Assembly (NCBI GenBank): GCA_007376195.1
Contig: VMFT01000003.1
Location: forward strand, 1-57,352
Direction of reading: 5' to 3'
DNA: 57,352 bases
Source of the DNA: Parcubacteria group bacterium Gr01-1014_29
GTDB lineage: Bacteria; Patescibacteriota; Minisyncoccia; Ryanbacterales; 2-02-FULL-48-12
Part shown: piece after piece, positions 7,833-57,102 of the stretch
Position numbering within the stretch: position 1 is the stretch's first letter
Layout: every line of letters starts with the position of its first letter
The notes under the pieces: generated by a model
What the model was told of the DNA's origin: nothing
Databases searched by the model: none
The model's input: only the letters and a program-made list of their open reading frames with translations
Translations under genes and position numbers: made by a program

Positions 7833-9151
7833 TGACTGCCTTTCACAAAAAAATAGCGGCTGTAGTTCTCATGTTCTTCATACTATGCGCATCGTCATAT
7901 GCGCCGTGGAGCGTTCCGCGCGCACAGGCACTCGCATCTGGATCGATTGTGATAGATATAGAACAATATATAAAGGAATACATTCTTGATATTTTGGCAA
8001 AAGCTTTTCTTAAAAGACTCGCGCGGCAAATGGTTAATGAAACAAAAGAATGGCTTCGATCGGGGGACGCGTTCCGCGGCGGGGAACCCCTTTTTATAAC
8101 AAACTTCAATCAATACCTCTTTGACGCCGCTGATGTCGCGGCAAACGACTTCCTTGCCGAATTGTTTGGGGCAAAAACGTGGAACGCGCTCTGCAGACCA
8201 TTTCGCCTGCCGGTAGGCTTGGGCTTAAGCCAGAGCTACGGGCGTGGCTTCGGGAGTTTTAGGTATAAAGCGCGCTGCAGTATAACGGATATCGTGGGCA
8301 ACTTGGAGAATTTTTACTACAATTTCCAAAATGGCGGCTGGCAAGCTTGGGTTGCCAGCAGCCGGTACGAAAACAACATCTTTGGCCTGCTTACGATTAC
8401 GCGGGAGGAATCGCGTGAGCGGGAGCGTCTTGCCGCAAGAGAAAATAGGTATGATTTCGAGACGGGTTCCGGCTTTATCGCAAGTCAAATTTGCGTAGAC
8501 AGCATAACTATTGAAATAGAAAGCGACGTGACAAACAAGGTTGAATCAACCAAAAAAATCTGCAACAGAACCCTTAAAGAAACAATCGGATCTGTGGTGA
8601 AATCAAACCTAGATAGCGAGTTTGCGCGGGATTGGCTGGGACTTGAAATCGCAGATGAATTTCAGGAAATTATTTTTGCGGCGATAGACGGTCTACTCTC
8701 CATGGCAATTCAAGGACCCGGCGGGTTGTACAGAAAGCGTCCTCATTTTAACGCGACCGAGAGCAGACCCGTATACAAACCGTTCAGCAAAAACCCTACT
8801 TCATGGCGTTGTGCGGTTGACCACGGCGGGGGGGGAGCGAGCGCAAGTGGCGGCGGAACTAACCCGGATGGAAGCACCACGGGCGGATCTGCAAGCGTTA
8901 ATATCAGAATCGTCGGTTTCGACGATTGTAAAGCCGGGCCAAGCGGTCCTTTGCCCTACGACATACCACCCGACCCATCTATTGATTCTCCCGGTGGATC
9001 ATTTACCCAATGCAACGACGGCATAGACAACGACGGCGATAGTCTCATTGATCTTGCCGATTCGGATTGCACAAATGCTTCGGATCCAACCGAGGGTGAC
9101 GAACCCCCACCCCCACCCCCACCTACCCCACCTACGCCGCCTGGTCCATAA
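7832..9151 (+). CDS. Secreted hypothetical protein, Cys/Asp-rich C-terminal module and poly-Pro tail
   Basis: Signal-like N-terminus; CNDGIDNDGDSLIDLADSDC followed by EPPPPPPPTPPTPPGP. The start overlaps the stop of the preceding gene (ATGA). Confidence 0.55.
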   Translation: MTAFHKKIAAVVLMFFILCASSYAPWSVPRAQALASGSIVIDIEQYIKEYILDILAKAFLKRLARQMVNETKEWLRSGDAFRGGEPLFITNFNQYLFDAADVAANDFLAELFGAKTWNALCRPFRLPVGLGLSQSYGRGFGSFRYKARCSITDIVGNLENFYYNFQNGGWQAWVASSRYENNIFGLLTITREESRERERLAARENRYDFETGSGFIASQICVDSITIEIESDVTNKVESTKKICNRTLKETIGSVVKSNLDSEFARDWLGLEIADEFQEIIFAAIDGLLSMAIQGPGGLYRKRPHFNATESRPVYKPFSKNPTSWRCAVDHGGGGASASGGGTNPDGSTTGGSASVNIRIVGFDDCKAGPSGPLPYDIPPDPSIDSPGGSFTQCNDGIDNDGDSLIDLADSDCTNASDPTEGDEPPPPPPPTPPTPPGP

Positions 9152-9163
9152 AAACAAACGAGA

Positions 9164-11538: not shown

Positions 11539-12645
11539 ATGGACGACACAACAAACAAACAACCAAATGAGATATTCGACCGCCTTGAAAAACTCCCTCC
11601 GGAGTTAAAGGACGTTATGTTTTCAACCGTTACGGCCGAAAAGATGTTTGATATCGGCAAGCGGCACGGCCTTCTGGTGGACAAACTGGGCGACATGGCG
11701 CACGAAACCGGGCTTTTGATGCTTGGCGTAACACACCCTGATGAATTTATCGGCAACCTTGCTTCCCGACTTGAAGTAAACACACAAAAAGCAAACGCGA
11801 TAGCCGACGACATAAACCGCGAAATCTTTGCTCCCGTACGCGAACAGTTACGCGCAGTGTTTGGGGGAACTGCTGGTCAGGGAGAAACACCAACTAATAA
11901 AATCCCTCCCGGCCTCCCTTTTCCAAAGGGAGGAGAGAAATCAATTCCCCTTGAGAAATTAACTCCCCCTTTGGAAAAGGGGGTTATGGGGGATTTGCAA
12001 GGTACTAGCACCAAACCTGAAACAACTTTAGAAGACCTTGAGGCCGAGCTGGAGCACGCTCTTGCCGGACAAGGAGGTGGACAACCATTGAGTGTGGTTA
12101 AAAAACCAGCCAATCTAGGTTACAAAGGCGCTGATCCCTATCGCGAACAAGTTGAGGAGCATATGCCAAATGTACGAGGCGCACCCTATGTGCCGAGCAA
12201 AGAACAAGTAGTAAGTAGTACGTATCAAGGGAAAGAAGAGCCCAAGCCGATCAAAGAAATATCAATAGCAACACCGACACCAAAGTCGGTCGAGGAGCCG
12301 TCCGTGTTTTCGCCTCTATCGCCAAAACCCGCAGAGTCTGCAACAAAAGAACACGACACTCAAAAGGCATCAGGCTTCAAATTTCAAAATTCAACCTCCA
12401 GCAAAAACGATGAAGATGTATTAAAAGAAATCACAGGTGACACAAAAAACGGGTCGCTCCAAGCATTTCGCGGATTTAATATGAATAATAACCGATCGGT
12501 TGAGAACCCGCCGCGCTATGGATTTTCGAAACTGCCTCCGTACAGGGAAAATCCTACTGCAAAACCAACACCGGCAGAGCCAGTGGGAATGCCACAACCC
12601 ATTACTAAAAACCAGAACGATTCATACAGGGAAAAAATTGAGTAG
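11539..12645 (+). CDS. Hypothetical low-complexity protein (T4SS-like locus) containing a translated family A repeat
   Basis: ORF of 368 aa. Residues KIPPGLPFPKGGEKSIPLEKLTPPLEKGVMGDL are encoded by repeat copy 11899-11996. The C-terminal half is Pro/Lys/Ser rich. Confidence 0.5.
   Translation: MDDTTNKQPNEIFDRLEKLPPELKDVMFSTVTAEKMFDIGKRHGLLVDKLGDMAHETGLLMLGVTHPDEFIGNLASRLEVNTQKANAIADDINREIFAPVREQLRAVFGGTAGQGETPTNKIPPGLPFPKGGEKSIPLEKLTPPLEKGVMGDLQGTSTKPETTLEDLEAELEHALAGQGGGQPLSVVKKPANLGYKGADPYREQVEEHMPNVRGAPYVPSKEQVVSSTYQGKEEPKPIKEISIATPTPKSVEEPSVFSPLSPKPAESATKEHDTQKASGFKFQNSTSSKNDEDVLKEITGDTKNGSLQAFRGFNMNNNRSVENPPRYGFSKLPPYRENPTAKPTPAEPVGMPQPITKNQNDSYREKIE
11899..11996. repeat. Palindromic repeat family A, copy 2 (long variant, translated in frame)
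   Basis: AAAATCCCTCCCGGCCTCCCTTTTCCAAAGGGAGGA..(28 nt)..CTCCCCCTTTGGAAAAGGGGGTTATGGGGGATTT. Confidence 0.85.
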
Positions 12646-14099: not shown

Positions 14100-15911
14100 A
14101 TGGCTTTCTTATCAAAACTATTTGGTAAAAAACAAGAAGATGGAGAAGGTATCCTTCCGATTTTTCCGCAAGATATTTACTCACACGGCGTTTTAGAACT
14201 GGAAGATGCCATCGCGCCCGCAGCGCTCCAGGTAAACCCATCAAACCTGCGCCTCGGAGAAAAATACACTCGTACACTGTATGTATACGCCTATCCGCGG
14301 TTTTTGGCGACAAGCTGGTTTGCGCCTATCATCAATCTCGATAAAGTGTTTGATATCTCAATTTATATTCATCCGGTTGACACAGCCCTAATTCTGCGCG
14401 ATCTTCGCAAGAAAGTTGCCGAGGTACAATCGCAGATTTCCATACGTGAAGAAAAAGGCCTCGTGCGCGATCCAGTGCTTGATACTGCTTACCAGGATCT
14501 TGAGGCTCTGCGCGACAAACTCCAACAGGCGCAGGAAAAACTCTTTAGCATTGGGCTGTACATCACGCTCTACGGAGACACAGAAAAAGAGCTTACAGAA
14601 ATCGAGACAGAAGTACGTTCTATTCTTGAAGCAAAACTAATCTACGCGAAGCCCGCGCTCTTCCAGCAGCGGGAAGGATTTACCAGCACCCTGCCGCTTC
14701 TGCTTGATAAGCTGGAAGTGCATACCTACATGAACTCGTCCCCGCTTTCAAGTGTGTTTCCGTTTGTATCATTTGACCTCACCTCAAACCGCGGCATACT
14801 CTATGGCATTAATCGCCACAACAACAGCCTTATTTTATTCGACCGCTTTACGCTCGAAAACTACAACACGGTTGTTTTCGCAAAAGCGGGCGCGGGCAAG
14901 TCGTATATGACAAAACTCGAAATCCTGCGTTCGCTTATGTTTGATACTGATGTAATTGTAATAGATCCGGAACGGGAATATGAGTATCTGGCCGAAACCG
15001 TTGGCGGCAGATTCTTTAATATTTCCATCAACTCACACCATCATTTAAATCCCTTTGATCTTCCTTTGCCGCACGAGGATGAGTCGCCCACGGACGTGCT
15101 GCGCTCAAATATCATCAATCTTATTGGCCTCTTCCGGTTGATACTCGGCGGACTCACGCCCGAAGAAGATTCCATCATGGACCGTGCCATTACCGAAGCG
15201 TACGCCGCAAAAGACATTACAGCAGAGGCAGATTTTACGCATATCTCCCCCCCCCTGCTTTCAGACCTGGAGCTGGTGCTCGCGAACATGCAGGGTGGCG
15301 AGACACTGGCATTGCGCCTTAGAAAATACACCGAAGGCACGTGGTCGGGGTTTCTGAACCAACCGACAAATATAAACATCGACAAGCACATGGTGGTATT
15401 CTCGCTGCGCGATATGGAAGAGGAACTTCGTCCCATTGGCATGTATATTGTTACGCATTATATCTGGAATGTTGTGCGGTCTGAACTCAAAAAGCGCATC
15501 CTTATAGTTGATGAGGCCTGGTGGCTGATGAAATCGGAAGATGGCGCATCGTTTCTTTTTGGTCTTACCAAACGCGCCCGCAAATATTTCTTAGGTGTTA
15601 CCACTATTACGCAAGATATCGGCGACTTTATGAACTCGCCCTACGGCAAGCCGATTATCACCAACTCGTCTATTCAGGTACTGTTGAAGCAATCTCCCGC
15701 CACAATTGATATAATGAAAGATGTGTTTAACCTCACCGACGAAGAAAAGTTTCTGCTTTTGGAGTCCGACGTGGGGGAGGGAATTTTCTTCGCGGGGTTG
15801 AAACACGTGGCCATAAAAGTTATCGCCTCCTACACCGAAGACCAGATTATTACATCCGACCCCGAGCAATTATTGGCGATTAAACGGGCGAAAGAAGAAT
15901 TTACACAGTAA
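14100..15911 (+). CDS. virB4: VirB4/TraC-type T4SS ATPase (CagE_TrbE_VirB-like domain + AAA_10-type ATPase)
   Basis: Walker A FAKAGAGKSYMTK, Walker B ILIVDEAWWLM, and YTRTLYVYAYPRFL plus DISIYIHPVD motifs typical of VirB4 middle domains. Confidence 0.85.
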   Translation: MAFLSKLFGKKQEDGEGILPIFPQDIYSHGVLELEDAIAPAALQVNPSNLRLGEKYTRTLYVYAYPRFLATSWFAPIINLDKVFDISIYIHPVDTALILRDLRKKVAEVQSQISIREEKGLVRDPVLDTAYQDLEALRDKLQQAQEKLFSIGLYITLYGDTEKELTEIETEVRSILEAKLIYAKPALFQQREGFTSTLPLLLDKLEVHTYMNSSPLSSVFPFVSFDLTSNRGILYGINRHNNSLILFDRFTLENYNTVVFAKAGAGKSYMTKLEILRSLMFDTDVIVIDPEREYEYLAETVGGRFFNISINSHHHLNPFDLPLPHEDESPTDVLRSNIINLIGLFRLILGGLTPEEDSIMDRAITEAYAAKDITAEADFTHISPPLLSDLELVLANMQGGETLALRLRKYTEGTWSGFLNQPTNINIDKHMVVFSLRDMEEELRPIGMYIVTHYIWNVVRSELKKRILIVDEAWWLMKSEDGASFLFGLTKRARKYFLGVTTITQDIGDFMNSPYGKPIITNSSIQVLLKQSPATIDIMKDVFNLTDEEKFLLLESDVGEGIFFAGLKHVAIKVIASYTEDQIITSDPEQLLAIKRAKEEFTQ

Positions 15912-16029
15912 TACTTTGAATTACGAAACTCCTAAAAATCCCCCTTCATCCCCCTTTTCCAAAGGGGGACATGCGCTCCTCCCTTTGGAAAAGGGAGGTT
16001 GGGAGGGATTTTGTAATTCAAAGAGTAAT
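15908..16029. mobile_element. MITE-like composite: 21 nt terminal inverted repeats enclosing a family A palindrome (copy 3, 15934-16012)
   Basis: Left TIR is GTAATACTTTGAATTACGAAA; its TAA is the virB4 stop. Right TIR is TTTTGTAATTCAAAGAGTAAT, ending 4 nt before the next ATG. The same TIR type bounds 43287-43452. Confidence 0.7.
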
Positions 16030-16033
16030 AAGT

Positions 16034-16564
16034 ATGCCTGAAGAAACAACCGAACAACAATACCAAGCCGAACTGTTGCGCGAGCGACAGCGTGAGCAGC
16101 AGATGAATATTGAAGAGGCGGAACGCGAAATGGAGCTTGCGGAAACGGAGGATCTTTCCCAAACCCAAGCCGCTGGACAAGCAAAAGCGCCTAGGAACAC
16201 ATTTCCTCTATCAGCCATTGCGGTAGGTCTTTGGTTGTTTCCCGCCGCAGCTTTGGATATGTTTGAGTTTTTTGGGCAGGTATTGGCCGCGATTCCGTTT
16301 ATCGGGTTGCCGCTCGCTGGGGCAAGCAGTATTGTTGGGGCAATTTTTAGTGGTATAATGGTTTTGATAGTCGGGTTCTGGCTTCTTATGAAAGGTGTAA
16401 CTCCTTTCTCACCGAGCGGCATCCGGATATTTCTTGTTTTGGGGGCAACCGCGTTTGGCAATGCCATTGTAAACTGGCTGCCGGCGTGGAGTGGATTCTT
16501 TTTGTGGCTTTTCTTTATGGCCCACGCGCGAGAAGCGCTTTTCTTAAATAAATTTAAAAAATGA
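16034..16564 (+). CDS. Hypothetical 4-TM membrane protein (T4SS-like locus)
   Basis: Acidic N-terminus followed by four hydrophobic helices. The start is moved to the ATG at 16034 because the upstream part of the ORF is repeat-derived. Confidence 0.55.
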   Translation: MPEETTEQQYQAELLRERQREQQMNIEEAEREMELAETEDLSQTQAAGQAKAPRNTFPLSAIAVGLWLFPAAALDMFEFFGQVLAAIPFIGLPLAGASSIVGAIFSGIMVLIVGFWLLMKGVTPFSPSGIRIFLVLGATAFGNAIVNWLPAWSGFFLWLFFMAHAREALFLNKFKK

Positions 16565-17583
16565 ATACCACACACAAAACTGGAAACAAAACACACTCGG
16601 TTGTTTTTACTATTTTGTTACACATCCTCGTTGTTATATTTTTTCTTGCCGGACTGCGCGTTTACGGACAAGTCAATGAACCGAAAATAGAATTTGTTTT
16701 GAATCCTACCTATCCGCATGCTTATGAATTCACCAGTGTCACGATACGTTCCTTTAGTTTTGATACCCAAAGCGCGCTATTTTCATGGTCAATTAATGGA
16801 AAACCTGCCAGTACTGGAAGAGGAGTAAAAAGTGCCAGTTTCACCACAGGCCCTCTAGGATCAAAAACCGCCGTTTCTGTAATTATTGTCCCTTTCGAAG
16901 GTATGAAGATAAAAAAAACCATTGACGTATATGCCTCAGACCTTGATATTCTCTGGACAGCATCATCATATACACCACCATTTTATAGAGGGAAATCATT
17001 GCCTACCCGAGGGTCTACCGTTACATTCGTCGCCTCGCCATTCTTTGAAAGCGCCCAAACAGGAAAAGAAACAGATTTCTTGTTTGAATGGAATGTTGAC
17101 GGAAAAGAAATGCGCCAACAATCCGGATACGGCGCTCGTGTGTTTTCTCTCAATATCGGAAGAAACTCAAACACAGAATATCGTATTCAAGCGCGAGTTA
17201 CCAACCCCGCAACAAACGCAACACAAACAAAAAGCTTTTCTTTACCTATATATGATCCCGCATTACTGTTTTACGAACTCCACCCACTGCAGGGTCCGCT
17301 CACCGGACGCGCCATTTCCGACCGACGTGCCATCGCGCCGGATAGTGAAATACAAGTGCTTGCGGTACCGTACTACGCATCACAACCCCCAGCAGCGCTT
17401 GATTTTGGGTGGAAGGTAGAAAACACTGATATCGCGCGGGGAGAAAAAGGAGAGCGCGCCGATGTGTTAACGTATCACGCCGAGCAGGGAAGCAGGGGGC
17501 AACAAATTGTTTCCCTTAGCATTTTGAATCCATTCAATATATTAGAACGCATACAAGAATCATTTCGCATATATGTGGAATAA
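16561..17583 (+). CDS. Membrane-anchored hypothetical protein with three internal beta-rich repeats
   Basis: N-terminal TM. The signature recurs three times: ALFSWSINGKPASTGRG / FLFEWNVDGKEMRQQSG / LDFGWKVENTDIARGEKG. There is a 4 nt overlap with the previous gene. Confidence 0.55.
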   Translation: MNTTHKTGNKTHSVVFTILLHILVVIFFLAGLRVYGQVNEPKIEFVLNPTYPHAYEFTSVTIRSFSFDTQSALFSWSINGKPASTGRGVKSASFTTGPLGSKTAVSVIIVPFEGMKIKKTIDVYASDLDILWTASSYTPPFYRGKSLPTRGSTVTFVASPFFESAQTGKETDFLFEWNVDGKEMRQQSGYGARVFSLNIGRNSNTEYRIQARVTNPATNATQTKSFSLPIYDPALLFYELHPLQGPLTGRAISDRRAIAPDSEIQVLAVPYYASQPPAALDFGWKVENTDIARGEKGERADVLTYHAEQGSRGQQIVSLSILNPFNILERIQESFRIYVE

Positions 17584-18097
17584 AAAACATTTTGCGCTGG
17601 CGCTGTTGCTCCTTATTGCTCTATGTGCGTTTGGAACGGCGGATGCCGCGCGTTACAACCTTCTTGCGCCGCTGCCGGGAGGAGACGCGTCGGTTGATGC
17701 GACATCGGGAGGATTTCAAACCTACATGGCACAGCTTTTCTGGTTTATTTTGTGGGGAGCAATCATACTCGCGCTTGTTATGTTTGTCATCGGGGGGGTG
17801 GAATATGTGGGGTCGGCCGGAAACACGAGCCTGCTTCAAGACGCGAAAGGACGCATCACAAACGCGCTGTTAGGCCTGGTTCTCGCGCTTGCCGCTTGGC
17901 TTATCTTATACACCATAAATCCTGATTTGGTAATTTTTGAACTACCCATTGAGCCGATTACACTGCCAATCAGTGGCAATCAAAAGGCTACCACTGACGG
18001 AGAACCGCCTCCAATACCACCGCCGCTACCACCGCCACCTAATACAGGAGGCCCCCAGCCACCACCACCTCCGCCTCCACCACCATTAGGTAATTAA
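17573..18097 (+). CDS. VirB2/TrbC-like T4SS pilin with Pro-rich C-terminal tail
   Basis: Signal peptide ending TADA. Two hydrophobic helices (LFWFILWGAIILALVMFVIGGVEYV; ALLGLVLALAAWLILYTINP) match the CPR-type T4SS pilin layout as I recall it. The tail is PPPIPPPLPPPPNTGGPQPPPPPPPPP. Confidence 0.65.
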   Translation: MWNKKHFALALLLLIALCAFGTADAARYNLLAPLPGGDASVDATSGGFQTYMAQLFWFILWGAIILALVMFVIGGVEYVGSAGNTSLLQDAKGRITNALLGLVLALAAWLILYTINPDLVIFELPIEPITLPISGNQKATTDGEPPPIPPPLPPPPNTGGPQPPPPPPPPPLGN

Positions 18098-18126
18098 ACC
18101 CAATCAGTACATAACACAACCCATAT

Positions 18127-19323
18127 ATGACCATTCGAGGCAGAGAAATTAAACGTTCGCATATTCTCATCGGCAGCGCCGTTCTTGTTGGTATTGCCAT
18201 TATATTGTTCTTTTTATTACGCGGAGGAGATACAACAGGTGGGAGTGCCGGAGAAGATGATGGTTCGTTCTTTGGGTTTCTCTTCGGCGGCTCTTCTGTG
18301 TCACCAAAACCTCTCGATAATACTGCCACCGGAGACGACACCGAACAACCGGAGCAATACTTGTTTCGGATAACAAACGAACCTGTGGCAGGCGCTACCA
18401 TCTCGTCCGACGGCACATCGTTGCGATATTTCAAAAAAACAACCGGTCATTTGTTTGAAAACTCGTTCACCGGAGACAAGGAACAACGTATCTCCAATAT
18501 AACTACTTTAGCTATTCTTAACGCTCAGTGGACCCCCTCAAAAGAATACGCAATCATCAGTTATTACACGAATGGCGCCGTGCGCCGCTTTTACTCCCAC
18601 TACAGCGGAACGTCCACCATAACATCCGCAGTTCTCCCAAATGATATTATTGACATCACCACATCAAAAACAGATGAAAAAATAGCCTATCTCGTCTCTT
18701 CCGGCGCCGAGACTATGTTGCTTACCGCGAATCCTGATAATACCGGCATCAAGAATGTTTTTTCAACACCCTTTCCTGACTTTGAGCTTTCCTGGCCGGT
18801 GACAAACCGCATCGGCCTCAAAACACGAAGCTCCGCATACGCGCCGAGTGTTCTCTATACTCTCAACCCTTCCACCAAACAGCTCACGCGCGTACTCGAC
18901 GAAAAAGAAGGTCTTGATGTATTGTGGTCGCCCGATGGCACTGGTTTTCTCTCTATGAAAACAAGCCGCGAAGGCACGAATGTGGCGCTTCGTGTGGTAT
19001 CCTTACAAGACAACACGGCAGTAGATTTTCCTTTTGTAACGCTTCCGGAAAAATGTGTCTGGGCGCCATCAAAAGAGCGGGTGCTCTATTGCGCTATTCC
19101 CCAACAAATTCCAAGCGGCACACATGTACCCGATGAGTGGTGGCAGGGAAGCGTGTCATTTGATGACGCCCTCTGGCGCATATATGTTGACACGGGTATA
19201 CGCCAACAACTTCTGTCGGCTTACCAGCTTGACGCAATCAACCTTTTTACAGACAAAGAAGAATCGTTTCTTTTCTTCTCAAACAAAAAAGACGGGCTCT
19301 TGTGGAGCCTCCGCCTTCGTTAG
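18127..19323 (+). CDS. Membrane-anchored hypothetical protein, TolB/WD40-like beta-propeller
   Basis: N-terminal TM, then repeated beta-strand-rich segments including VLWSPDGTGFLS. It is the last gene of the co-directional locus. Confidence 0.5.
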   Translation: MTIRGREIKRSHILIGSAVLVGIAIILFFLLRGGDTTGGSAGEDDGSFFGFLFGGSSVSPKPLDNTATGDDTEQPEQYLFRITNEPVAGATISSDGTSLRYFKKTTGHLFENSFTGDKEQRISNITTLAILNAQWTPSKEYAIISYYTNGAVRRFYSHYSGTSTITSAVLPNDIIDITTSKTDEKIAYLVSSGAETMLLTANPDNTGIKNVFSTPFPDFELSWPVTNRIGLKTRSSAYAPSVLYTLNPSTKQLTRVLDEKEGLDVLWSPDGTGFLSMKTSREGTNVALRVVSLQDNTAVDFPFVTLPEKCVWAPSKERVLYCAIPQQIPSGTHVPDEWWQGSVSFDDALWRIYVDTGIRQQLLSAYQLDAINLFTDKEESFLFFSNKKDGLLWSLRLR

Positions 19324-21467: not shown

Positions 21468-22826
21468 ATGACAAACGAAGAATTGTGGCAGATAGTGCTT
21501 AATGAGGTTGAACTTGCCGTATCACGGGCAAACTTCATTACGTGGTTTAAAAACACGTCAATAAATCGTACTGCCCCAGGAGTCGCGACAATCTGTGTTC
21601 CCAATGGGTTTACAAAAGAATGGCTGGAAAACAAGTATCACAAGCTGATAATGCGCGCCATTCGAACCAATTGCCCGGAAATCCGCAGTGTAGATTATGT
21701 CATATCCACATTACCGCAACCGTTTATCGTTGAAAAACAAAAAGAGCCGGAGTCGGTATTTCCTGAAGAACAACTGGAATTCCAAGAGTTTAGTATTGAT
21801 ACAGAAACAAACCTAAATCCACGATATGTATTTGATACATTTATTGTAGGGTCTTTTAACGAGCTGGCGTATGCCGCGGCACAATCAGTAGTTAAAAACA
21901 TAGCATCATTATATAACCCTCTCTTTATTTATGGCGGCGTTGGGCTTGGAAAAACACACCTTCTGCAGGCTATTGGCAACGCCATAAAACAATCCAACAC
22001 GAACCTACAGGTTCACTATGCCACATCCGAGCGTTTTACCAATGATCTCATAGCGGCGATCCAAAGCCATGAACCACAACGATTTAAAGACCGTTATCGT
22101 AGATTTGATGTCCTTATTATTGATGACATACAGTTTATAGCTGGAAAAACCCGCACACAGGAGGAATTTTTCCACACATTCAACACATTATACGAAAATA
22201 ACAAACAGGTTATCTTTTCTTCCGATCGTCCGCCAAAATCAATACCAGACTTAGAAGAACGTCTTCGTTCACGTTTTGAAGCAGGTCTTATAGCGGATAT
22301 CTCTCAACCGGATTACGAGACACGTTTGGCAATTTTACAGACTAAACTAGCCAGCAAAAAACATGAATTTCCTGTTGAAATATTGGAATATATCGCATCT
22401 GTTGTAGAAAAAAACATCCGGGAACTTGAAGGCGCGCTTAATATAGTATCGGCCCGCGCGCATATCCTGCATAAAATGCCTGATATGGAAGAAGTAAAAA
22501 CACTGATCGCACAAATAATATCAAAACCAAAATGGATTATCACCGCTTCAAAAATTATAAAGGAAGTTTGTTTGTTTTATGATATAAACGAGCGGCATCT
22601 TTTTGAGCGCAGTAGACGCCGTGAAATAGTAAAACCGCGCCAAATCGCAATGTACCTTCTCCGTGAAGATTTCCGCGGATCATTTCCTTATATTGGGCAA
22701 AAATTCGGGGGGCGCGACCATACAACCGCAATCCATGCATATGAAAAAATTGCAAAGAATATAAAGGTTGATAAAAAACTCATGGACGAAATACTTCTTC
22801 TACGCGACCGTATTTATGAGAATTAA
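21468..22826 (+). CDS. dnaA: Chromosomal replication initiator protein DnaA
   Basis: AAA+ Walker [17 protein letters not shown], box VII/sensor regions, and C-terminal DNA-binding HTH ([13 protein letters not shown]). Confidence 0.95.
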
Positions 22827-23068
22827 AAATAATCGGTGTATATCGTAGGTATAAGGATGGAATAACATGGTACTAAAAGGGGATATGACGCCGACTTACA
22901 AAAACAAGTACATCAATCCACACATATTCACCACTATTTTTCCAATATATATCAACAATAAGAGTGTCAAAAAACGATTAGCTGACAATAAAAACAACCG
23001 TTTATCCACATATCCACACATATTACTACTACTATAAATGTATTGTATATAAAATAATTATTGTAATA
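22827..23068. other. Probable oriC (dnaA-dnaN intergenic, AT-rich, DnaA boxes)
   Basis: TTATCCACA (23002-23010) is followed immediately by TATCCACAC. CAATCCACA lies at about 22914. AT-rich tracts lie nearby. Confidence 0.6.
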
Positions 23069-24169
23069 ATGAAATTTATCGTACTAAAAGAAAATTTATG
23101 TGAGGGAGTTCTGCTTGCGGAAAAAAGTACCGGAAAAAAAACCACACTTCCCATATTATCATCCATTCTGTGCTCCGCCCAGAATGGTAAAATACTACTT
23201 GTGGGCACTAATTTAGAAACAGCGGTTGAGGTGTGGGTGGGTGGCAAAATCGAACGCGAAGGTAGCATTGCGATTCCAGCGCGTGTGTTGAGTTCTTATA
23301 TATCTCTGGTGGGCGGTGATCAGATTACTCTCTCAAGCCGGGGAGAAAACCTTGAGGTATCTTCTGATAAAGGAAAAACTATCATTCGAGGCTGTTCCAC
23401 GAATGATTTTCCACTTGTTCCGCGTCAGGAAGAAATCAGTAGATTTACACTGCCTGCCGGATCTCTGCGTGACGCACTGCGTCGTGTGGTATTTGCGGTG
23501 TCGGTGTCGGATATACGACCCGAACTTGCCAGTATTTTCTTTTCCATTACACCAACAACCACCATCATAGCCGCTACTGATAGTTTTCGTCTTGCCGAGC
23601 AAAAAATACAAGGAACTTTTGGTGAAAAAGGATGGTCGCAAGTATTTTTGCTCCCCGCAAAAAGCGCTAACGATCTCGCGCGTCTCCTTGAGCGGGAAGA
23701 GGAGAACGTGCTCGTGTCTCTCGGTAAGGGGCAGATTGTGTTTTCCACAAAACGGTTTCGTCTCACATCACGTCTTACGGAAGGTTCTTTTCCAGATTAT
23801 AAACAGATTGTTCCGGCTGTATTTTGCACAGAGTTTAATTTGCCAAAAGATGTAATTATGGACACATTGCGTGTTACGGGATTGTTTGTAAGCAAGCTGC
23901 ATGATGTGATATTTCATGTGCAACCATCACAAAAGCGCGTTGAAGTTCGCTCAGCAAACGCTGATGTTGGGGAGAATATAGCCTCTCTGCCGGCGACAAT
24001 ACAAGGATCAGAATTACAAATTAGTTTTAATTACCGCTATATTATGGATGGACTTGGGCAGGTTGAGGGTGATGTTGTTTTTGGTTTTACTTCCGCCTCT
24101 GGTCCATTGATGATACGCACAAGGGATGATACTTCTTATTTCTATGTTGTTATGCCGATGAAAGTATGA
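23069..24169 (+). CDS. dnaN: DNA polymerase III beta sliding clamp
   Basis: 366 aa, three-domain clamp length, MKFIVLKENL start, immediately downstream of dnaA. Confidence 0.9.
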   Translation: MKFIVLKENLCEGVLLAEKSTGKKTTLPILSSILCSAQNGKILLVGTNLETAVEVWVGGKIEREGSIAIPARVLSSYISLVGGDQITLSSRGENLEVSSDKGKTIIRGCSTNDFPLVPRQEEISRFTLPAGSLRDALRRVVFAVSVSDIRPELASIFFSITPTTTIIAATDSFRLAEQKIQGTFGEKGWSQVFLLPAKSANDLARLLEREEENVLVSLGKGQIVFSTKRFRLTSRLTEGSFPDYKQIVPAVFCTEFNLPKDVIMDTLRVTGLFVSKLHDVIFHVQPSQKRVEVRSANADVGENIASLPATIQGSELQISFNYRYIMDGLGQVEGDVVFGFTSASGPLMIRTRDDTSYFYVVMPMKV

Positions 24170-33570: not shown

Positions 33571-33697
33571 TACTTTGAATTACGAAATCCCTCCCCCGCC
33601 CGCCTTGCTTCGCAACGCGAAGCGGGCAGGCAACCTCCCTTTTCCAAAGGGGGATGAAGGGGGATTTTTAGTGTCAGACATTCTCGTAAATCTTAAA
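33571..33697. repeat. TIR-like module + family A palindrome copy 4 (33585-33669) with a central GC hairpin
   Basis: TACTTTGAATTACGAAA, then AAATCCCTCCCCCGCCCGCC..GCTTCGC-AAC-GCGAAGC..CCTCCCTTTTCCAAAGGGGGATGAAGGGGGATTTTT. It is flanked by TCTGACA / TGTCAGA. A degenerate right end overlaps the stop of 33693..34571. Confidence 0.7.
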
Positions 33698-50992: not shown

Positions 50993-51340
50993 ATGTTTGA
51001 TTTTGAAAACTTAAAGGTGTACCACGACGCAAAGGAGCTTAACAAGAAAATTTTGTGTTTTGTGAAAGACAATAAACACATTGACTCGTATCTCCGCGAC
51101 CAATTGCGCAGAGCTTCCATAAGTATGGTTATCAATATCGCAGAAGGAAGTGGTAAATTTTCAAAAGCTGACAAAAGAAATTTCTATACGATCTCTAGGG
51201 GTTCTGTGTATGAATGTGTTTCTATTTTTGATATCATTCATGATGAGCAACAGGTAAGCAATGAAGAGTATAAAAATTTCTATCAGCGATACGAAACAAT
51301 CTCCAAAATGCTACTCGGGTTAATTAACTCTCAAAAATAA
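50993..51340 (+). CDS. Four-helix-bundle protein (23S rRNA intervening-sequence protein / Avd-like family)
   Basis: FENLKVYHDAKEL...LRDQLRRASISMVINIAEGSGKFSKADKRNFYTISRGSVYEC is the family signature (TIGR02436-type, by recall). Confidence 0.8.
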   Translation: MFDFENLKVYHDAKELNKKILCFVKDNKHIDSYLRDQLRRASISMVINIAEGSGKFSKADKRNFYTISRGSVYECVSIFDIIHDEQQVSNEEYKNFYQRYETISKMLLGLINSQK

Positions 51341-51389: not shown

Positions 51390-51462
51390 GGACGGTTAGC
51401 TCAATTGGCAGAGCACTTCGTTTACACCGAAGGGGTTGCAGGTTCAAGTCCTGCACCGTCCA
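51390..51462 (+). tRNA. tRNA-Val (anticodon UAC)
   Basis: Manual cloverleaf: acceptor GGACGGT/ACCGTCC, D arm GCTC-AATTGGCA-GAGC, anticodon arm CTTCG-TTTACAC-CGAAG, and T arm GCAGG-TTCAAGT-CCTGC. CCA is not encoded. Confidence 0.92.
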
Positions 51463-51586
51463 CTTTGTGCGGGACACCGGGCAGGCCGGTAGTTCGAATC
51501 TCTCAGGGTGCACAAAATTTCTAACGGGGTAGAATATACAGAAGTTATTCACACCAAACAGTATTCAAGGCAGGATATAAAGGGCT

Positions 51587-54500
51587 ATGCTTAAAAATAA
51601 GGTCTATTATAATTTTATGTATCATATAAATCACATGAAAAAGTTTGCAAAGTACGTTTTCCTTGCCGCGGGCATTGCGGCATTTATAATGGTCGTAGCA
51701 CTAAATGTAGGCACTCCTTCAGTTGCCCAAGCCGCGGCGGCATGGCAACCACTGACAGTAGATGGCAAATTCCAGACGGCTATTCACGTGGTTCCGCCTA
51801 CTGATGAAAATCCTTTGCATGCGACTATCTACGGGATTGGCACCGATAACAGTATTAGCAACGGAAATGCGGTTAAAAAATGGAGGAACACCGGAGCTAC
51901 GATAGATCAAGGCGCGTCTGAGACATTCTCCACATCAGGAAATTATAAAGGGAGCTTAGTTCTTGCCAAAGATGGATCCTACACTCGTCCCGGTTTTATC
52001 ACGGGTGTAAATAAGTACTTTTACAGCATCGGTCTTGATAACAGCGTCTATCGGTGGCGCGATGGACAGGGATTTGATCTCTATGCGCCTAATGGATCGC
52101 TGAAAAAGATATATATGCCTGATGATAATACTATTTACGGCATCGGTTATAATGAAGATTTTATTTGGAAATGGACACCGGCAGGGGGATGGAAGAGAAT
52201 TACGAACGGCCCCGTAAAGGATAGTTTTCATGTTATTTCTGAAAACGATATCTACGCGATTGGTTTAGATAACCAAATTTATCGCTGGACTGGCACGCCG
52301 TTTTATCAAGGTACGGGAGGAAGTTTTGCGAAAGTGAACCCAGACACACATCCGTTTTCACTTAAACATAAAATTCATTACGCAAATGGAAACATATACG
52401 GCATCGGGTTAGACAATAGGATTTGGAAATGGGATACCTCAAAAAATAATACTCCCTCTGCTGCTTCCTCTCCCGTCACTGACTGCTGCATTAAAGACGA
52501 TTTCCACTTTATCTCGGAGAACGATATCTATGGGATTGGATTAGATAACAATGTTTGGCATTGGAGCGGGACAGGTGGAGGCGAGGTAGGATTATATTCC
52601 GGATTTTATAATTTCCCGGTAAGATTTTTTAACGAGTCAGTTGTACCACGTGAGCAAATGACAAAAGTTACTGACGCCCAGTATGTAAGTCTTAAGAAAA
52701 TGCATAATAGTAATGCACCCTATGTATTTACTAGAATTGAGTATGGTCCCTCCGTATATGGAGCAACTATGCCTAATGGAATCAAATTGGGTGACGCCGC
52801 CTTTCCAGGACTAAATGGTGGTCACCCACGTTGGGAGGTTATGGCGCATGAGCAAGGGCATAATTTTTTTGGCGGCACGAGTCCGTGGTATAACACACTC
52901 GCAGTACCAGGGCCTTTTTTGCAGGAGAGCTTAGCTGTCTTGAGTGCCTTCTATACATATCATAATATTATTGAGAATTTACCGGCCTTTAATATCACTA
53001 GTGGAACGGCTAGTAGTCTAAATTATGATTTTACCAGTGGAAGAAATTATCAAAGAAGTCAACATGATCTTTACATCTCACAGGGCAAAAATTTTGACGA
53101 CCAAGTTACTTTGACCAGTCAGGCGCTTGATTACAAAATGATAGTCTATGGAGAAACATACGGTTGGCAGAATTATACGAAATTAACTAAAGCATTTGAG
53201 AGCGGAGTTGCAAGTCAGTTTACGTTTCAAAACGATGGCGTCTCCGCCACCGAAAGAAGCACCTATATTGTTGCGGCTCTCGGGGCTACATTCAATAGAG
53301 ATTTTAGAAATGAATTTCTCGCGTTGAACTTCCCGGTAGACAATACTCTTTATAATGAAATCTATAATAAATTGGTAGTTGTTATGGGGGGCTACACGCT
53401 CAATGTCACTAAATCAGGAACCGGTAGCGGAACCGTAATCTTTCCCGTGGGCATCAATTGCGGATCGGATTGCTTCGAAAGCTACGCAGCCGGTGCCCCT
53501 GTCACGCTCACCGCGCAAGCCACAGCCGGCTCAACCTTTACCGGATGGAGCGGGGATTGTTCGAGTGTCAATTTGGTTACCGGAACCTGCCAGCTCACTA
53601 TGAGCGCGGCAAAGAGTGTGAAGGCGACATTCGATCTCACAGGAGGCACCCCACCTCCCGCTCCTTGGGCTGAAGTTCCGGGGAGTGGATTGACCCTTGA
53701 TAGCCCTGCCGCACTTTGGTATTCGAATAGAAATGAAGGAAGTTTGTTTGTTAGAGGAACTGACGATTTGGTCTATGTTAATCATTCCTCTGGAGGCAAC
53801 TTCATTTCCTGGAATTCCCTCCCTGATAAAAAAACCTTAAGCCAGCCCGGAGTGGTAGTGGATAGTGACGGCATCAGACATATTTTTATACAAGGAAAAG
53901 ACGACAATAAGATTTATACTTTGGGTTCCAGTGGAACATGGATTGAGGTCCCGGGAGGAGGATCAACCCCAAGCGGCCCGGAAGCCGTACGGGAAGGAAC
54001 TAAAATTCATCTCTTTATTCGCGGAACAAACGATAAGGTGTATATGAATACTAGAGATAATGATTCCTGGCAGAACGAATGGACCGAAATTCCCGGAGGT
54101 AAACTTATTGCAAGCAGTCCTTCCGCGGTGGTGACTTCCAACCAGCTTAACGTCTTTGTTAGAGGCACTGATGATAAAATTTATCTAAATACCAAGAGTG
54201 CCAACGACTGGGAAGGATGGAGCGAGCTGAAAAGTGGGGGATCAACTTTAAGTCAACCGACTGTCGTCGTAGCTGGAACAGGTGTAAAAGTCTATGTGCG
54301 CGGCACCGATAACAAAGTCTATTCTACATCAGGCATAATTAGCAGTACTAATAAATCATTCACTGAATGGAGTGTTGTGTCTCCGGATGCGGCAGTAACC
54401 GGAAGCGGGCCCGAAACAATCGTGGATGCTTCAGGCAATATCCTTATTTTTATTCGCGGGTTGAATAATAAGATTTACAGGCAAACAATCGCGGTGGGAG

Positions 54501-56152
54501 GAGCCTTCGCCCCCTCCCTTATATATTCAAAAATCATTAATGGTCCAAGCGAACCAAACTTTAACGTTAATGAAGATATTCATGGAAAAGCGGAAAATGC
54601 TGGACCAAATAGCAAGTTGTGTTCTCAAGTCCTAGTGCACCCCACCCTTAATTGCGGAGGGTCTGGTCAACCGGCTTGCGCAGACGCATGTGCTGGCGAT
54701 CCCTTGGCTTCCGTTGGCACGAATCCTCCTTGGAAGAGAATGATTGATTTGGTGCAATGGAATGGTACGGATTCTAGCCGAGGTAACACAGGATATAGCA
54801 CAAACTCATGGCGCGGACTTACAAAAGCGGCAGATTTTTACCCTTCTATTGTTGCTCCCGGGCTAAAGCTTAAAATTCATCTCTATGATCCAGACCAACC
54901 GGTAGTTGCAAACAGAAGGACTAGCGCTGATGTTGAATACAAAATCGGAGGCACCACCGGCGGCAGTCTTACCACTCAATATAGTTCTTCTGCCGCGAAT
55001 GTCCCGCCTGGTTTTGCGGTGCCGTTTAATCTTTTTACTCCGGCGAAAGAGCTTCTGGTAGGCGGTTCTCGTTCTTCCACGGGCATTACCGCAACGGCGG
55101 GCGCGTCTACACAGGATCCCGTGACCTATGTCTATCACAAGGGATACATATTGCGTAATAATCAATGGCAACAGATTACTTTTACTTCTTCCGGCACGCC
55201 GCTTATTTCTAACTTCTGGTATGCGGGCACTGTCCAAGCTTCTATTCCTCTTACATCCGCAGAACTTTCTCAAAGTATCCATGTTATTGCCTATACATGC
55301 GCATATGTAAACGGCCAATGGAAATGCGGGTGTAAAGATGCGGCCTGTGCTACGAATTATTGGCAGCTACAGACGTTTCGTCCGACGGGTGGCGGAGGCG
55401 GTGGCGGAGGTGGTGGTGGAGGTGGTAATGCCACTCTCCGCATCGCTCCTTCAGAGATAAATTCATACTATAGGTGGGCGACGTCAGGCGGTTCTTATGA
55501 AGAAGCTTCCTACACATACGCGCTTTACGATCCCGACGGGTCTGGGCCACAACCAGAGCGAAAGTTGTTTAATAGTGAAGTCGTCTGGACGCCAGGAGAC
55601 CCGCACCTAAATCTACCGAATCAGCCAGTACGTCCAGGCGAATGGCTAGCGTATGCTGGTACTCTTCAGAGCGGTAATTTAGTAGTAGAAAATCAACAAC
55701 CGTATACGACAACTATCACCGCTAATGCCAAAGGCCTCACCGCCAGCATTGACTTTAAAATGAATGTTGGCCGCAGGCCGGGTAGCGAACGCGCCTGGTT
55801 CTGGGTGTCTTCCCCGGGAAAACTTTTTAGCGGATTGCCGTATGTTCCTTATGATAACGACGCCCCAGTCGGCTCTAGAGATGCCCACTTCGAAATGACC
55901 GTGAAGGTAGGAGAAACGAAGACATATCCAATTAACGTAGCCACTGGTTTCGGGGATAATCTAGAGCCACTTTCAGGGATAACCAATCTACTAGGGTTAA
56001 ACTTCGTATGCAACTACGCAGGATCCGGAAGTATCAGTTGCGATGACCGATACGGAATAACGGGCGTTGTGCCGGGGATAACCTACATCCAACACCCCGG
56101 GACTCTTAGTGACAGCGCTTTATCACTCACCAGAGTTACGGTAACCCAATAA
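51587..56152 (+). CDS. Giant secreted multidomain protein: tectonin-like propeller, HExxH metallopeptidase-like module, InlB B-repeat-like domain, DUF346/PLL-like propeller, large Cys-containing C-terminal region
   Basis: Signal/anchor MKKFAKYVFLAAGIAAFIMVVAL. Six IYGIGLDN.IW.W-type repeats (about 51740-52610). HEQGH at 52847-52861. GTGSGTV..GINCGSDC..TGWSGDC module (about 53393-53637). Six F[VI]RGTDDK[IV]Y-type repeats (about 53668-54490). Gly13 linker at 55388-55426. The start could be 51635. Confidence 0.8.
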   Translation: MLKNKVYYNFMYHINHMKKFAKYVFLAAGIAAFIMVVALNVGTPSVAQAAAAWQPLTVDGKFQTAIHVVPPTDENPLHATIYGIGTDNSISNGNAVKKWRNTGATIDQGASETFSTSGNYKGSLVLAKDGSYTRPGFITGVNKYFYSIGLDNSVYRWRDGQGFDLYAPNGSLKKIYMPDDNTIYGIGYNEDFIWKWTPAGGWKRITNGPVKDSFHVISENDIYAIGLDNQIYRWTGTPFYQGTGGSFAKVNPDTHPFSLKHKIHYANGNIYGIGLDNRIWKWDTSKNNTPSAASSPVTDCCIKDDFHFISENDIYGIGLDNNVWHWSGTGGGEVGLYSGFYNFPVRFFNESVVPREQMTKVTDAQYVSLKKMHNSNAPYVFTRIEYGPSVYGATMPNGIKLGDAAFPGLNGGHPRWEVMAHEQGHNFFGGTSPWYNTLAVPGPFLQESLAVLSAFYTYHNIIENLPAFNITSGTASSLNYDFTSGRNYQRSQHDLYISQGKNFDDQVTLTSQALDYKMIVYGETYGWQNYTKLTKAFESGVASQFTFQNDGVSATERSTYIVAALGATFNRDFRNEFLALNFPVDNTLYNEIYNKLVVVMGGYTLNVTKSGTGSGTVIFPVGINCGSDCFESYAAGAPVTLTAQATAGSTFTGWSGDCSSVNLVTGTCQLTMSAAKSVKATFDLTGGTPPPAPWAEVPGSGLTLDSPAALWYSNRNEGSLFVRGTDDLVYVNHSSGGNFISWNSLPDKKTLSQPGVVVDSDGIRHIFIQGKDDNKIYTLGSSGTWIEVPGGGSTPSGPEAVREGTKIHLFIRGTNDKVYMNTRDNDSWQNEWTEIPGGKLIASSPSAVVTSNQLNVFVRGTDDKIYLNTKSANDWEGWSELKSGGSTLSQPTVVVAGTGVKVYVRGTDNKVYSTSGIISSTNKSFTEWSVVSPDAAVTGSGPETIVDASGNILIFIRGLNNKIYRQTIAVGGAFAPSLIYSKIINGPSEPNFNVNEDIHGKAENAGPNSKLCSQVLVHPTLNCGGSGQPACADACAGDPLASVGTNPPWKRMIDLVQWNGTDSSRGNTGYSTNSWRGLTKAADFYPSIVAPGLKLKIHLYDPDQPVVANRRTSADVEYKIGGTTGGSLTTQYSSSAANVPPGFAVPFNLFTPAKELLVGGSRSSTGITATAGASTQDPVTYVYHKGYILRNNQWQQITFTSSGTPLISNFWYAGTVQASIPLTSAELSQSIHVIAYTCAYVNGQWKCGCKDAACATNYWQLQTFRPTGGGGGGGGGGGGGNATLRIAPSEINSYYRWATSGGSYEEASYTYALYDPDGSGPQPERKLFNSEVVWTPGDPHLNLPNQPVRPGEWLAYAGTLQSGNLVVENQQPYTTTITANAKGLTASIDFKMNVGRRPGSERAWFWVSSPGKLFSGLPYVPYDNDAPVGSRDAHFEMTVKVGETKTYPINVATGFGDNLEPLSGITNLLGLNFVCNYAGSGSISCDDRYGITGVVPGITYIQHPGTLSDSALSLTRVTVTQ

Positions 56153-56226
56153 AGTCGGACTTTACCCAGCCCCCGCAATCGCGGGGTGGGTTTTTGAATC
56201 TCTTGCGGGAACATGGTTTTGCAGCT

Positions 56227-57102
56227 ATGATAGGCGATATGGACGAGCGCGAACAAAAAATTCAAAAACTCAAAGAATATTTTGAAAAACGCGAGGATGC
56301 GGTGATGGCATTTTTGTTTGGGTCGCAGGCGGAAGATCGGGCTCACGCGAGTTCTGATTGGGATATTGCCGTGTACATCGCATCAAAAGACAAGCGTGTA
56401 GAGTGGGAAGAGCACGCAAAAGAATATCCTCAAGAACAAAAAATATGGAGCGATTGTGTTGATATATTAAAAACGGATCATGTGGACATTGTGATATTAA
56501 ATCGCGCGCCGGTGAATATCGCGGATGCCGCCATTTCCGGGGTTCCTCTTGCGGTAAAAGATCGGGGGTTATTTCTTCAATTTATGTTGATCGTGACAAA
56601 AGCCGCGGAGGAGTATTACGAATTTTCAAAAGATTATTATGACATATTTATGCGTTCTGCTTCTCTGATAAAAAAAGACGCGGATCGCTTAAGAAACATT
56701 GTTGAATTTATTGAAGCACAGCGAACGCTTTACCCGTCATTTCTCGTTCTTTCTCAAAAAGAATACGAAAACAATCTTATCATGCGAGGCGCGGTAGAGC
56801 GGTGGCTGGAAAATCTCATGAATGGCGTTATTGATATTGCAAAAATTGTTTTGGCAAGCAAGCGCGTGCCAAATCCTTACGGCTACGCAAACACAGTAGA
56901 GAGAGCGATGGATATTCTTGCTTTGCCAAAAGAGACTATCGCGCAATACGAAAAATGGGTGAAGCTGCGCAATGAATTAGCTCACGAATATCTTGACATA
57001 AAATGGAGAAAATTAACTGATTTTATTAATGTGAGCGAACCGCATATTCAGTCCCTTATTGCCGCAACGCGTGATTTTCTTAACAAAGAAGAAACAGAAT
57101 AA
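56227..57102 (+). CDS. Fused minimal nucleotidyltransferase (MNT) - HEPN (DUF86) protein
   Basis: N-terminal FLFGSQAEDRAHASSDWDIAVYI (GS...D.D NTase motif). C-terminal RNELAHEY (R-x4-H HEPN motif) within a DUF86-like helical domain. The ORF is open from 56194 (TTG). Confidence 0.75.
   Translation: MIGDMDEREQKIQKLKEYFEKREDAVMAFLFGSQAEDRAHASSDWDIAVYIASKDKRVEWEEHAKEYPQEQKIWSDCVDILKTDHVDIVILNRAPVNIADAAISGVPLAVKDRGLFLQFMLIVTKAAEEYYEFSKDYYDIFMRSASLIKKDADRLRNIVEFIEAQRTLYPSFLVLSQKEYENNLIMRGAVERWLENLMNGVIDIAKIVLASKRVPNPYGYANTVERAMDILALPKETIAQYEKWVKLRNELAHEYLDIKWRKLTDFINVSEPHIQSLIAATRDFLNKEETE

Follow-up and report, generated by a model that had tools for sequence, protein, structure and literature searches.

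Little is known of the ways in which uncultivated ultrasmall bacteria recognise other cells and exploit them. One open reading frame (ORF) in the genome of Parcubacteria group bacterium Gr01-1014_29 raises the question in concrete form: what would be achieved by a giant protein that joins two different beta-propellers of lectin type to a putative zinc protease? The ORF lies at positions 51587..56152 on the + strand of a 57,352-nucleotide stretch of contig VMFT01000003.1 (assembly GCA_007376195.1; the entire stretch is termed ‘the window’ below and supplies all coordinates unless another locus is named), and it translates without interruption, from its first ATG, into 1521 amino acids, the stop codon being included in the coordinates. 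An initial annotation, made from the letters alone, had proposed an order of domains and a set of motifs for the product, and all of these are present where they were said to be, almost point for point. The answer that we favour, with moderate confidence and on the strength of sequence comparisons and structure models, is that its product is a zinc metallopeptidase of modular build, exported from the cell and guided by glycans, which would thus be a concrete and expressible candidate for such dealings with other cells. Of wider interest is the peptidase module, which represents a gluzincin family with a confidently predicted fold; neither Pfam nor NCBIfam has a model for this family, and its closest members are fused to prepilin sequences.

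An unannotated gluzincin family

The peptidase module, as delimited by its relatives, an AlphaFold2 model and Foldseek comparisons, occupies residues 335-600 (266 amino acids; 52589..53386, + strand). It contains the single HEQGH of the protein at residues 421-425 (52847..52861, +), within MAHEQGHNFFGG, a motif whose conservation and placement in a model helix mark it as the predicted zinc-binding and catalytic site (H421, E422 and H425). An exhaustive phmmer search over 1.84 billion representatives returned relatives of the module in 211 clusters at E <= 1e-3, 35 of them at E <= 1e-30, and HExxH is kept in 118 of the 121 relatives that cover the site. In an alignment of 116 sequences the three motif residues H421, E422 and H425 are conserved at 97%, 99% and 97%, respectively, and Y496 and D572 each at 95%. 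The initial annotation had feared that HEQGH might lack the context of a third ligand; that context is present, in the form of the candidate ligand E447 (52925..52927, +), which lies 21 residues past H425, is conserved in 99% of the 116 relatives and is invariant in two further alignments (A2 and A3), and which conservation and the model helix single out together.

The structure predicted for the module from 57 sequences is of high confidence (pLDDT 97.2, pTM 0.94). In it HExxH forms model residues 87-91 of a helix spanning 82-97, and E447 (model residue 113) sits in the next long helix (109-129); the placement of HExxH and the glutamate on consecutive long helices is, in the model, the gluzincin arrangement. 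The spacing HEQGH-X21-E447 also fits the pattern HEXXHX(8,28)E by which the M60-like family is defined (PMC3267712, PMC9118916). When the model was compared with known structures by Foldseek, only gluzincin peptidases were matched: AM0627 (E 4.7e-3, TMq 0.49), the M60-like homologue 4FCA (0.53), ZmpC, ZmpB and ZmpA came first, followed by gluzincins of families M1, M61 and M9, which score similarly. A viral fold library yielded weak matches only, to enhancin (E 0.3) and to M60-like proteins. The ‘zincin-like module’ of the first reading can therefore be stated more narrowly, as a predicted gluzincin fold.

Evidence at the level of sequence points the same way, at a distance. A profile of the family found ZmpC as its best match among structures in the PDB (E 0.026, aligned over HELGHNF...E). 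Of 30 family members, seven gave hits to the Pfam model Peptidase_M60 that stayed under its threshold (best 9.1e-6); distant family members at full length gave none. In our view the module belongs to an unannotated gluzincin family and is intact in its predicted catalytic residues; its nearest known relatives are the M60-like peptidases, themselves distant, and it is not taken as a demonstrated member of the M60-like family. Zinc-dependent proteolysis would be the activity expected from its conserved residues and modelled fold.

A comparison can be drawn with the M60-like O-glycopeptidases (BT4244, ZmpA/B/C, IMPa and AM0627, together with the enhancins). In addition to the gluzincin motif HEXXHX(8,28)E, these enzymes share with the window protein an extracellular location and fusion to domains of carbohydrate-binding type, which in their case are thought to present glycoprotein substrates to the peptidase (PMC3267712, PMC9118916). 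They differ from it in the nature of the partners, which here are beta-propellers with lectin folds rather than CBM32, CBM51, CBM5_12 or BACON domains, and in their source, which is animal mucosa rather than an uncultured lineage from groundwater.

Distribution of the peptidase module

Traced over contigs, with one genome taken per species, the module was found at 53-72% identity in Saccharibacteria, Sungiibacteriota, Sumerlaeota, Chloroflexi/Dehalococcoidia, Nanoarchaeota, Woesearchaeota and Thermoplasmatales (loci L003-L012), and the family thus spans bacteria of the Candidate Phyla Radiation (CPR), DPANN archaea, Chloroflexi and Sumerlaeota. Because identities in this range extend across two domains of life, horizontal spread of the module between bacteria and archaea is suggested. 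No paralogous module was detected elsewhere in the window by tblastn.

Most members are proteins of 300-500 amino acids with a signal or anchor, and with or without a PKD domain or a B-repeat. The closest relatives (P0159, P0160 and P0010; 72-76% identity, ~380 amino acids) begin with a prepilin signal, KKG|FALLELLV; against the prepilin model TIGR02532, P0160 scores 19.6 bits (cutoff 16.3) and the other two fall just under the cutoff. The genes around that of P0160 include N_methyl pilin genes, and it immediately follows a Peptidase_C39 gene, overlapping its end. As judged from these sequences, the gluzincin domain of all three would form the globular head of a protein resembling a pilin. The loci of such pilin-type relatives include L003 2325-3488 and L014 8001-9155.

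Distant members carry tails for the type IX secretion system (T9SS), dockerin, cohesin or BACON domains, or B-repeats. Every relative that was checked has an extracellular context of one kind or another, whether PKD, B-repeat, cohesin, dockerin or BACON domains, T9SS tails or prepilin signals. Two fusion partners are unusual: a C-terminal Peptidase_C25 domain of gingipain type in P0001 (1524 amino acids), and an N-terminal thioredoxin-like AhpC/TSA domain in P0002 (875 amino acids, from Dehalococcoidia).

Export signal, propellers and B-repeat

The ‘signal or anchor’ of the initial annotation is visible in the sequence as a Sec-type signal peptide or N-terminal anchor at residues 17-49 (51635..51733, +), with the basic start MKKFAK, a hydrophobic core of 17 residues and the terminal AQA/AAA, and the protein is predicted to be exported by way of this signal. 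The prepilin motif GFxxxE (TIGR02532) had no match at the N-terminus. The true start is probably the ATG at nucleotide 51635 (M17), giving a product of 1505 amino acids, because residue 1 of two related proteins, P0003 and P0005 (both beginning MKNFAKYVF...), aligns to residue 17 of the window protein, with signal sequences that are nearly identical from there on.

The signal is followed by the N-terminal propeller at residues 53-331 (51743..52579, +), which was recognised from its repeats, an AlphaFold2 model and Foldseek. It consists of six blades of ~38 residues each, of the type IYGIGxDNxIWxW; the motif can be written [IF]Y[GAS]IG-x-DN-x-[IV][WY], with anchors at residues 81, 145, 183, 222, 270 and 314, and the same type of blade recurs in four other proteins (P0003, P0004, P0005 and P0009). 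Six tandem blades of roughly 35-45 residues are what characterises propellers of the tectonin/tachylectin-1 type, and the tectonin-type lectins (Laccaria Tectonin 2, carp fishelectin, tachylectin-1/TECPR) likewise have six short blades, of ~38-45 residues, with a motif of the same shape: hydrophobic, aromatic, G, hydrophobic, G, x, DN, x, hydrophobic, W. The model, computed from an alignment of five sequences, is all-beta (pLDDT 65.5, pTM 0.67). The first three ranks of its Foldseek search were taken by Laccaria Tectonin 2 (5fsc/5fsb; E 6.4e-9, TMt 0.66-0.69), after which came PLL5, carp fishelectin (rank 6) and the fucose lectins AFL/FleA, all ahead of WD40 proteins.

Unlike its fold, the sequence of this propeller does not lead to the tectonins. 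The repeats matched no tectonin or tachylectin family in Pfam (where the whole protein has a single match at E <= 1, to the B-repeat domain described below), residues 53-334 had no phmmer match among PDB sequences, and a profile of the 38-residue blade matched only PLL lectins (E 5.4e-5), by way of a common GxDNxhW core. An assignment to the tectonins by sequence was consequently rejected: of the earlier claim of ‘six tectonin/tachylectin-like blades’, the number of blades and the tectonin fold stand, but the likeness does not extend to sequence, and the propeller is supported as tectonin-like at the level of the modelled fold only.

For the second propeller, at residues 698-976 (53678..54514, +), the position is reversed, in that homology by sequence to the PLL lectins is unambiguous. 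A phmmer search of residues 690-982 against the PDB matched Photorhabdus PLL (5c9o, E 1.4e-28), PLL2 (6rfz, 6.5e-28) and PHL (5mxe, 1.6e-20), each match comprising several overlapping alignments of repeats. A hidden Markov model (HMM) of the repeat found six blades of the form h-[RQ]-G-x-[DN][DN]-K-[IV]-Y (anchors at residues 722, 768, 811, 858, 904 and 956) and no further copy even at E values up to 1000; a cryptic seventh blade was found in neither propeller by this approach, and the two sets of repeats are distinct from one another in sequence. The PLL-family lectins (Photorhabdus PLL, PLL2, PLL3, PLL5 and PHL), whose ligands are L-fucose or O-methylated sugars, share with the window propeller a core of the form h-h-h-RG-x-DN-x-h-aromatic, and a WxxW in some blades. 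Theirs, however, is a propeller of canonically seven blades (PMC6943638), and PLL is a free lectin of ~370 amino acids, whereas the window propeller has six blades and is one domain of a giant protein. Residues 698-976 would thus represent a version of the PLL lectin fold that has six blades. The earlier assignment of six DUF346/PLL-like blades holds for homology and for number, but the tryptophans that stack on sugar in the PLL lectins are only partly kept, a point that is taken up below. Sugar binding by either propeller is what repeat homology and modelled fold would lead one to expect.

Between the peptidase and the PLL-type propeller lies a domain with four cysteines at residues 606-683 (53402..53635, +) that had been described as a divergent InlB B-repeat-like module. 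Pfam bears out that description: the domain matches Flg_new_2 (PF18998) at E 1.4e-10, with 41.4 bits against a gathering cutoff of 23.6. The same module is present in P0003, P0005, P0006 and P0008.

The C-terminal region and the architecture as a whole

Beyond the second propeller the protein continues for ~540 residues, which had been predicted as a cysteine-containing region of some 550 residues split by a run of glycines. The split is exactly where it was placed, at a flexible linker of 13 glycines (Gly13; residues 1268-1280, 55388..55426, +) that was read from the sequence and is also spanned by a contig of an independent sample, and the region resolves into three modules without annotation. 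The first (residues 980-1134; 54524..54988, +; C1012, C1023, C1031 and C1035) gave no relatives and no Pfam or PDB match. The second, a ‘QWKCGC...WQLQ’ module with four cysteines (residues 1135-1265; 54989..55381, +), shows 42-43% identity with the C-terminal end of P0200, a beta-helix protein, and with residues 61-188 of P0201, and its alignment (A6) has 32 invariant columns. The third, which follows the linker (residues 1281-1521; 55427..56149, +; C1475 and C1485), is a conserved domain with 49% identity to the C-terminus of P0199 and 35% to that of P0003. Searches of the PDB and Pfam with the latter two (alignments A6 and A5) and with residues 980-1134 gave nothing usable; the two that do have relatives come to light here as further unannotated modules. 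The 1521-residue protein has 16 cysteines in all.

In every protein that has it, the last domain is terminal and stands after a flexible linker, which in P0199 is rich in proline and threonine. P0199 itself has an N-terminus resembling pilins of type IV secretion systems (T4SS), together with two IPT/TIG domains. Because P0199 would be anchored at its N-terminus, the domain would be placed at the tip, and this distal position hints at binding; a preference for such a role over one in wall anchoring is speculation by analogy.

Searching the whole architecture against a collection of 5.8 billion clusters found no protein that covers more than ~21% of the query, in keeping with the earlier remark that the combination was not recognisable as a described one; a search of the PDB with the whole protein returned artefacts of the glycine linker only. 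The signal of the window protein recurs in P0003 and P0005 together with its N-terminal propeller and B-repeat, and P0003 has its C-terminal domain as well; both proteins have different middles and no peptidase module. Given this common ‘chassis’ with exchangeable middles, the window protein looks like one product of module shuffling. It is rated here as belonging to a known kind, that of proteases with carbohydrate-binding domains, in a new combination of modules.

Proposed function and competing explanations

In the mechanism that these modules suggest, the protein would first be exported through the Sec pathway. The two six-bladed propellers of lectin type (tectonin-like and PLL-like), which flank the gluzincin domain, would then attach, by multivalent binding, to the glycans of a target surface or polymer and in this way keep the peptidase next to a substrate that is a glycosylated protein, so that the gluzincin could cleave the adjacent, probably glycosylated, polypeptide. 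The Ig-like B-repeat would serve as a spacer, and the three C-terminal modules, the last of them on its Gly13 tether, would probably add binding or anchoring. The target would be a glycoprotein of a host-cell envelope if the organism is an episymbiont, and an environmental glycoprotein otherwise. We infer this cooperation between domains, and the nature of the target, while a role in host attachment by an episymbiont is a reasonable conjecture. The notion of a glycan-guided protease has a precedent in the M60-like peptidases: O-glycopeptidases of that family are served by CBM32, CBM51 and BACON domains, and M60-like proteins carry carbohydrate-binding modules (PMC3267712). The proposal also fits what is known of PilX2, a minor pilin that aids host binding in Nanosynbacter lyticus TM7x (Saccharibacteria) and has a PLL-like propeller that has been linked to the binding of host cell-wall glycans (PMC11623550). 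Like the window protein, PilX2 is a CPR surface protein with a PLL-like propeller, and like the closest relatives of the peptidase module it is of prepilin type; it differs from the window protein in being a pilin with a seven-bladed propeller of RCC1 repeats and no protease, whereas the window protein combines a Sec signal with a pair of propellers and a peptidase.

Several observations weigh against this proposal. The structural similarity of the module to M60-like enzymes is weak (best E 4.7e-3, with none at E <= 1e-3, a TM score of ~0.5 and ~10% identity), the window protein has no match to Peptidase_M60 (PF13402) at E <= 1, and the Ig-like domain that directly precedes the catalytic domain in AM0627 (PMC9118916) is absent; there is no room for one, because blade 6 of the propeller ends at residue 331 and the module begins at residue 335. 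The model of the N-terminal propeller is only moderately confident, at the pLDDT given above, and propellers all match one another (604 Foldseek matches at E <= 0.001). In the PLL-type propeller, the position of the tryptophan in the PLL ‘LW’ is occupied by tyrosine in 6 of 6 blades, and only blades 3 and 4 have the complete WxxW pair; blades 1, 2 and 5 retain one tryptophan of it and blade 6 has lost both, so that several sites are left without the tryptophan that is needed for CH-pi stacking on sugar in the inter-blade sites of PLL (PMC6943638). The ~540 C-terminal residues are without explanation in the proposal. Finally, the gene is absent from RNA runs, none of which holds the sequence; the runs that do hold it are all groundwater metagenomes.

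The most serious competitor, which we consider possible though rather unlikely, is a general exoprotease for scavenging nutrients, acting on environmental glycoproteins, necromass or biofilm matrix with no specific host, in which the propellers would be generic substrate-binding modules and digestion would supply amino acids. The peptidase family does occur, at 53-66% identity, in Chloroflexi/Dehalococcoidia and Sumerlaeota, which are not known as episymbionts, and the dockerin, cohesin, BACON and T9SS sorting tails of its distant members are typical of secretomes that degrade polymers; because of these occurrences, general extracellular proteolysis is as compatible with the data as host attachment is. 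Yet the closest relatives of the module are prepilin-fused and encoded among pilin genes, which suggests that they are displayed on the cell and not released, and two multivalent propellers of lectin type with a tethered C-terminal domain resemble an adhesion apparatus more than a free protease. That resemblance could be pressed further, to a protein that is primarily an adhesin, attached by its propellers and C-terminal modules, in which the peptidase serves for self-processing or release and makes no attack on a target. The chassis evidently functions without a peptidase in P0003 and P0005, and propeller pilins of PLL-like type contribute to the binding of TM7x to its host (PMC11623550). The module, however, also occurs in small proteins, secreted or fused to pilins, that have no other globular domain, which argues for an autonomous function in trans, and its full catalytic set is under strong conservation; an adhesin of this kind is accordingly thought improbable.

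Two further explanations are of a different order. A mosaic in which each module has its own set of relatives, and whose whole architecture was found in no other protein, invites the suspicion of an artefact, either an assembly chimera of unrelated genes (which the initial annotation had itself named as a danger) or a mis-called ORF. An identical protein of 1521 residues is, however, present on two contigs of independent assembly (46 kb in ENA and 6.8 kb in Logan). In run X1, a single contig spans 51000-56700 at a flat depth of 14.3x with 0 differences, and in three samples beyond it (X2-X4) short contigs cross 3 of the 4 main domain junctions (propeller/peptidase, peptidase/B-repeat and PLL/C-terminal) as well as the Gly13 linker, which is spanned by a contig from X2, again with 0 differences. 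The guanine-plus-cytosine (GC) content of the ORF is in line with its flanks. An assembly chimera is very unlikely in the face of two assemblers that agree, flat depth, junction-crossing contigs without differences and matching GC content, and was rejected; an artefact of any sort is scarcely credible. As little weight can be given to the idea that the ORF encodes a protein that a diversity-generating retroelement (DGR) uses as its variable target. It is prompted by a 23S_rRNA_IVP/Avd-like gene upstream (50993-51340) and by a bAvd-like gene at the locus of P0003 as well, but no pair of template and variable repeats involving the ORF exists anywhere in the 57 kb, and a reverse-transcriptase domain was not seen among the larger window ORFs that were scanned; for the window, a DGR target was rejected on these two grounds.

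The glycan-guided peptidase remains the preferred reading, and it permits a bolder and more doubtful extension, to which we would give a place below the scavenging protease. In that extension, the 266-residue module founds an unannotated gluzincin family on the surface of ultrasmall symbionts (CPR and DPANN), borne as the head of pilin-like proteins in some and between lectin propellers here, which would cut glycoproteins of the host envelope in a glycan-guided manner during attachment or feeding, and which would have moved horizontally between bacteria and archaea. If the module is active, it would carry M60-like glycan-guided proteolysis from animal mucosa to encounters between microbes and to groundwater settings.

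Genomic context

The window, an ordinary piece of chromosome around dnaA and dnaN, further contains uvrD, uvrB, ruvABC-type genes, polA, genes for PBP1, a PilB-type ATPase and a TraG/VirB4-like ATPase, and many unannotated ORFs. Immediately upstream of the large ORF lie the 23S_rRNA_IVP/Avd-like gene mentioned above and a tRNA-Val gene (51390-51463); downstream lies a fused gene for a nucleotidyltransferase (NTase) and HepT (56194-57102, an ORF of 302 amino acids). Genes for large surface proteins or for the peptidase module are repeatedly flanked by genes of the Avd/23S-rRNA-IVP-like and NTase (Polbeta)/HepT toxin-antitoxin kinds, as seen in the window (50993-51340 and 56194-57102), at L013 16154-19778 and at L014 9252-11590. 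Within the NTase/HepT gene, at 56272-56471, the window and the contigs of samples X2-X4 disagree in 10-13 letters, while their pieces of the large ORF are identical to it, which shows strain variation just downstream of that ORF. Straight after the tRNA-Val gene, positions 51464-51520 contain a T-arm-like GGTAGTTCGAATCTCTC that was not called by ARAGORN and may be a tRNA fragment or pseudo-tRNA, possibly an old scar of integration.

Elsewhere in the window, dnaA and dnaN adjoin at 21468-24169 and the cumulative GC skew has its minimum around 20-24 kb; the replication origin is therefore probably part of this stretch. Intergenic GC-rich hairpin repeats (CCTCCCTTT-GAAAA-AGGGAGG, then GGGAGGGATTTT) occur at 3641-3728, 11894-11933, 15930-16022 and 33632-33678, and look like shared terminators or elements resembling repetitive extragenic palindromes (REP-like). 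Lastly, ORFs of 368-749 amino acids without a Pfam match (7832-11413, 11539-12645 and 16561-19323) are found near the gene for the TraG/VirB4-like ATPase (14100-15911), and may form with it a divergent cluster of type IV secretion-like character.

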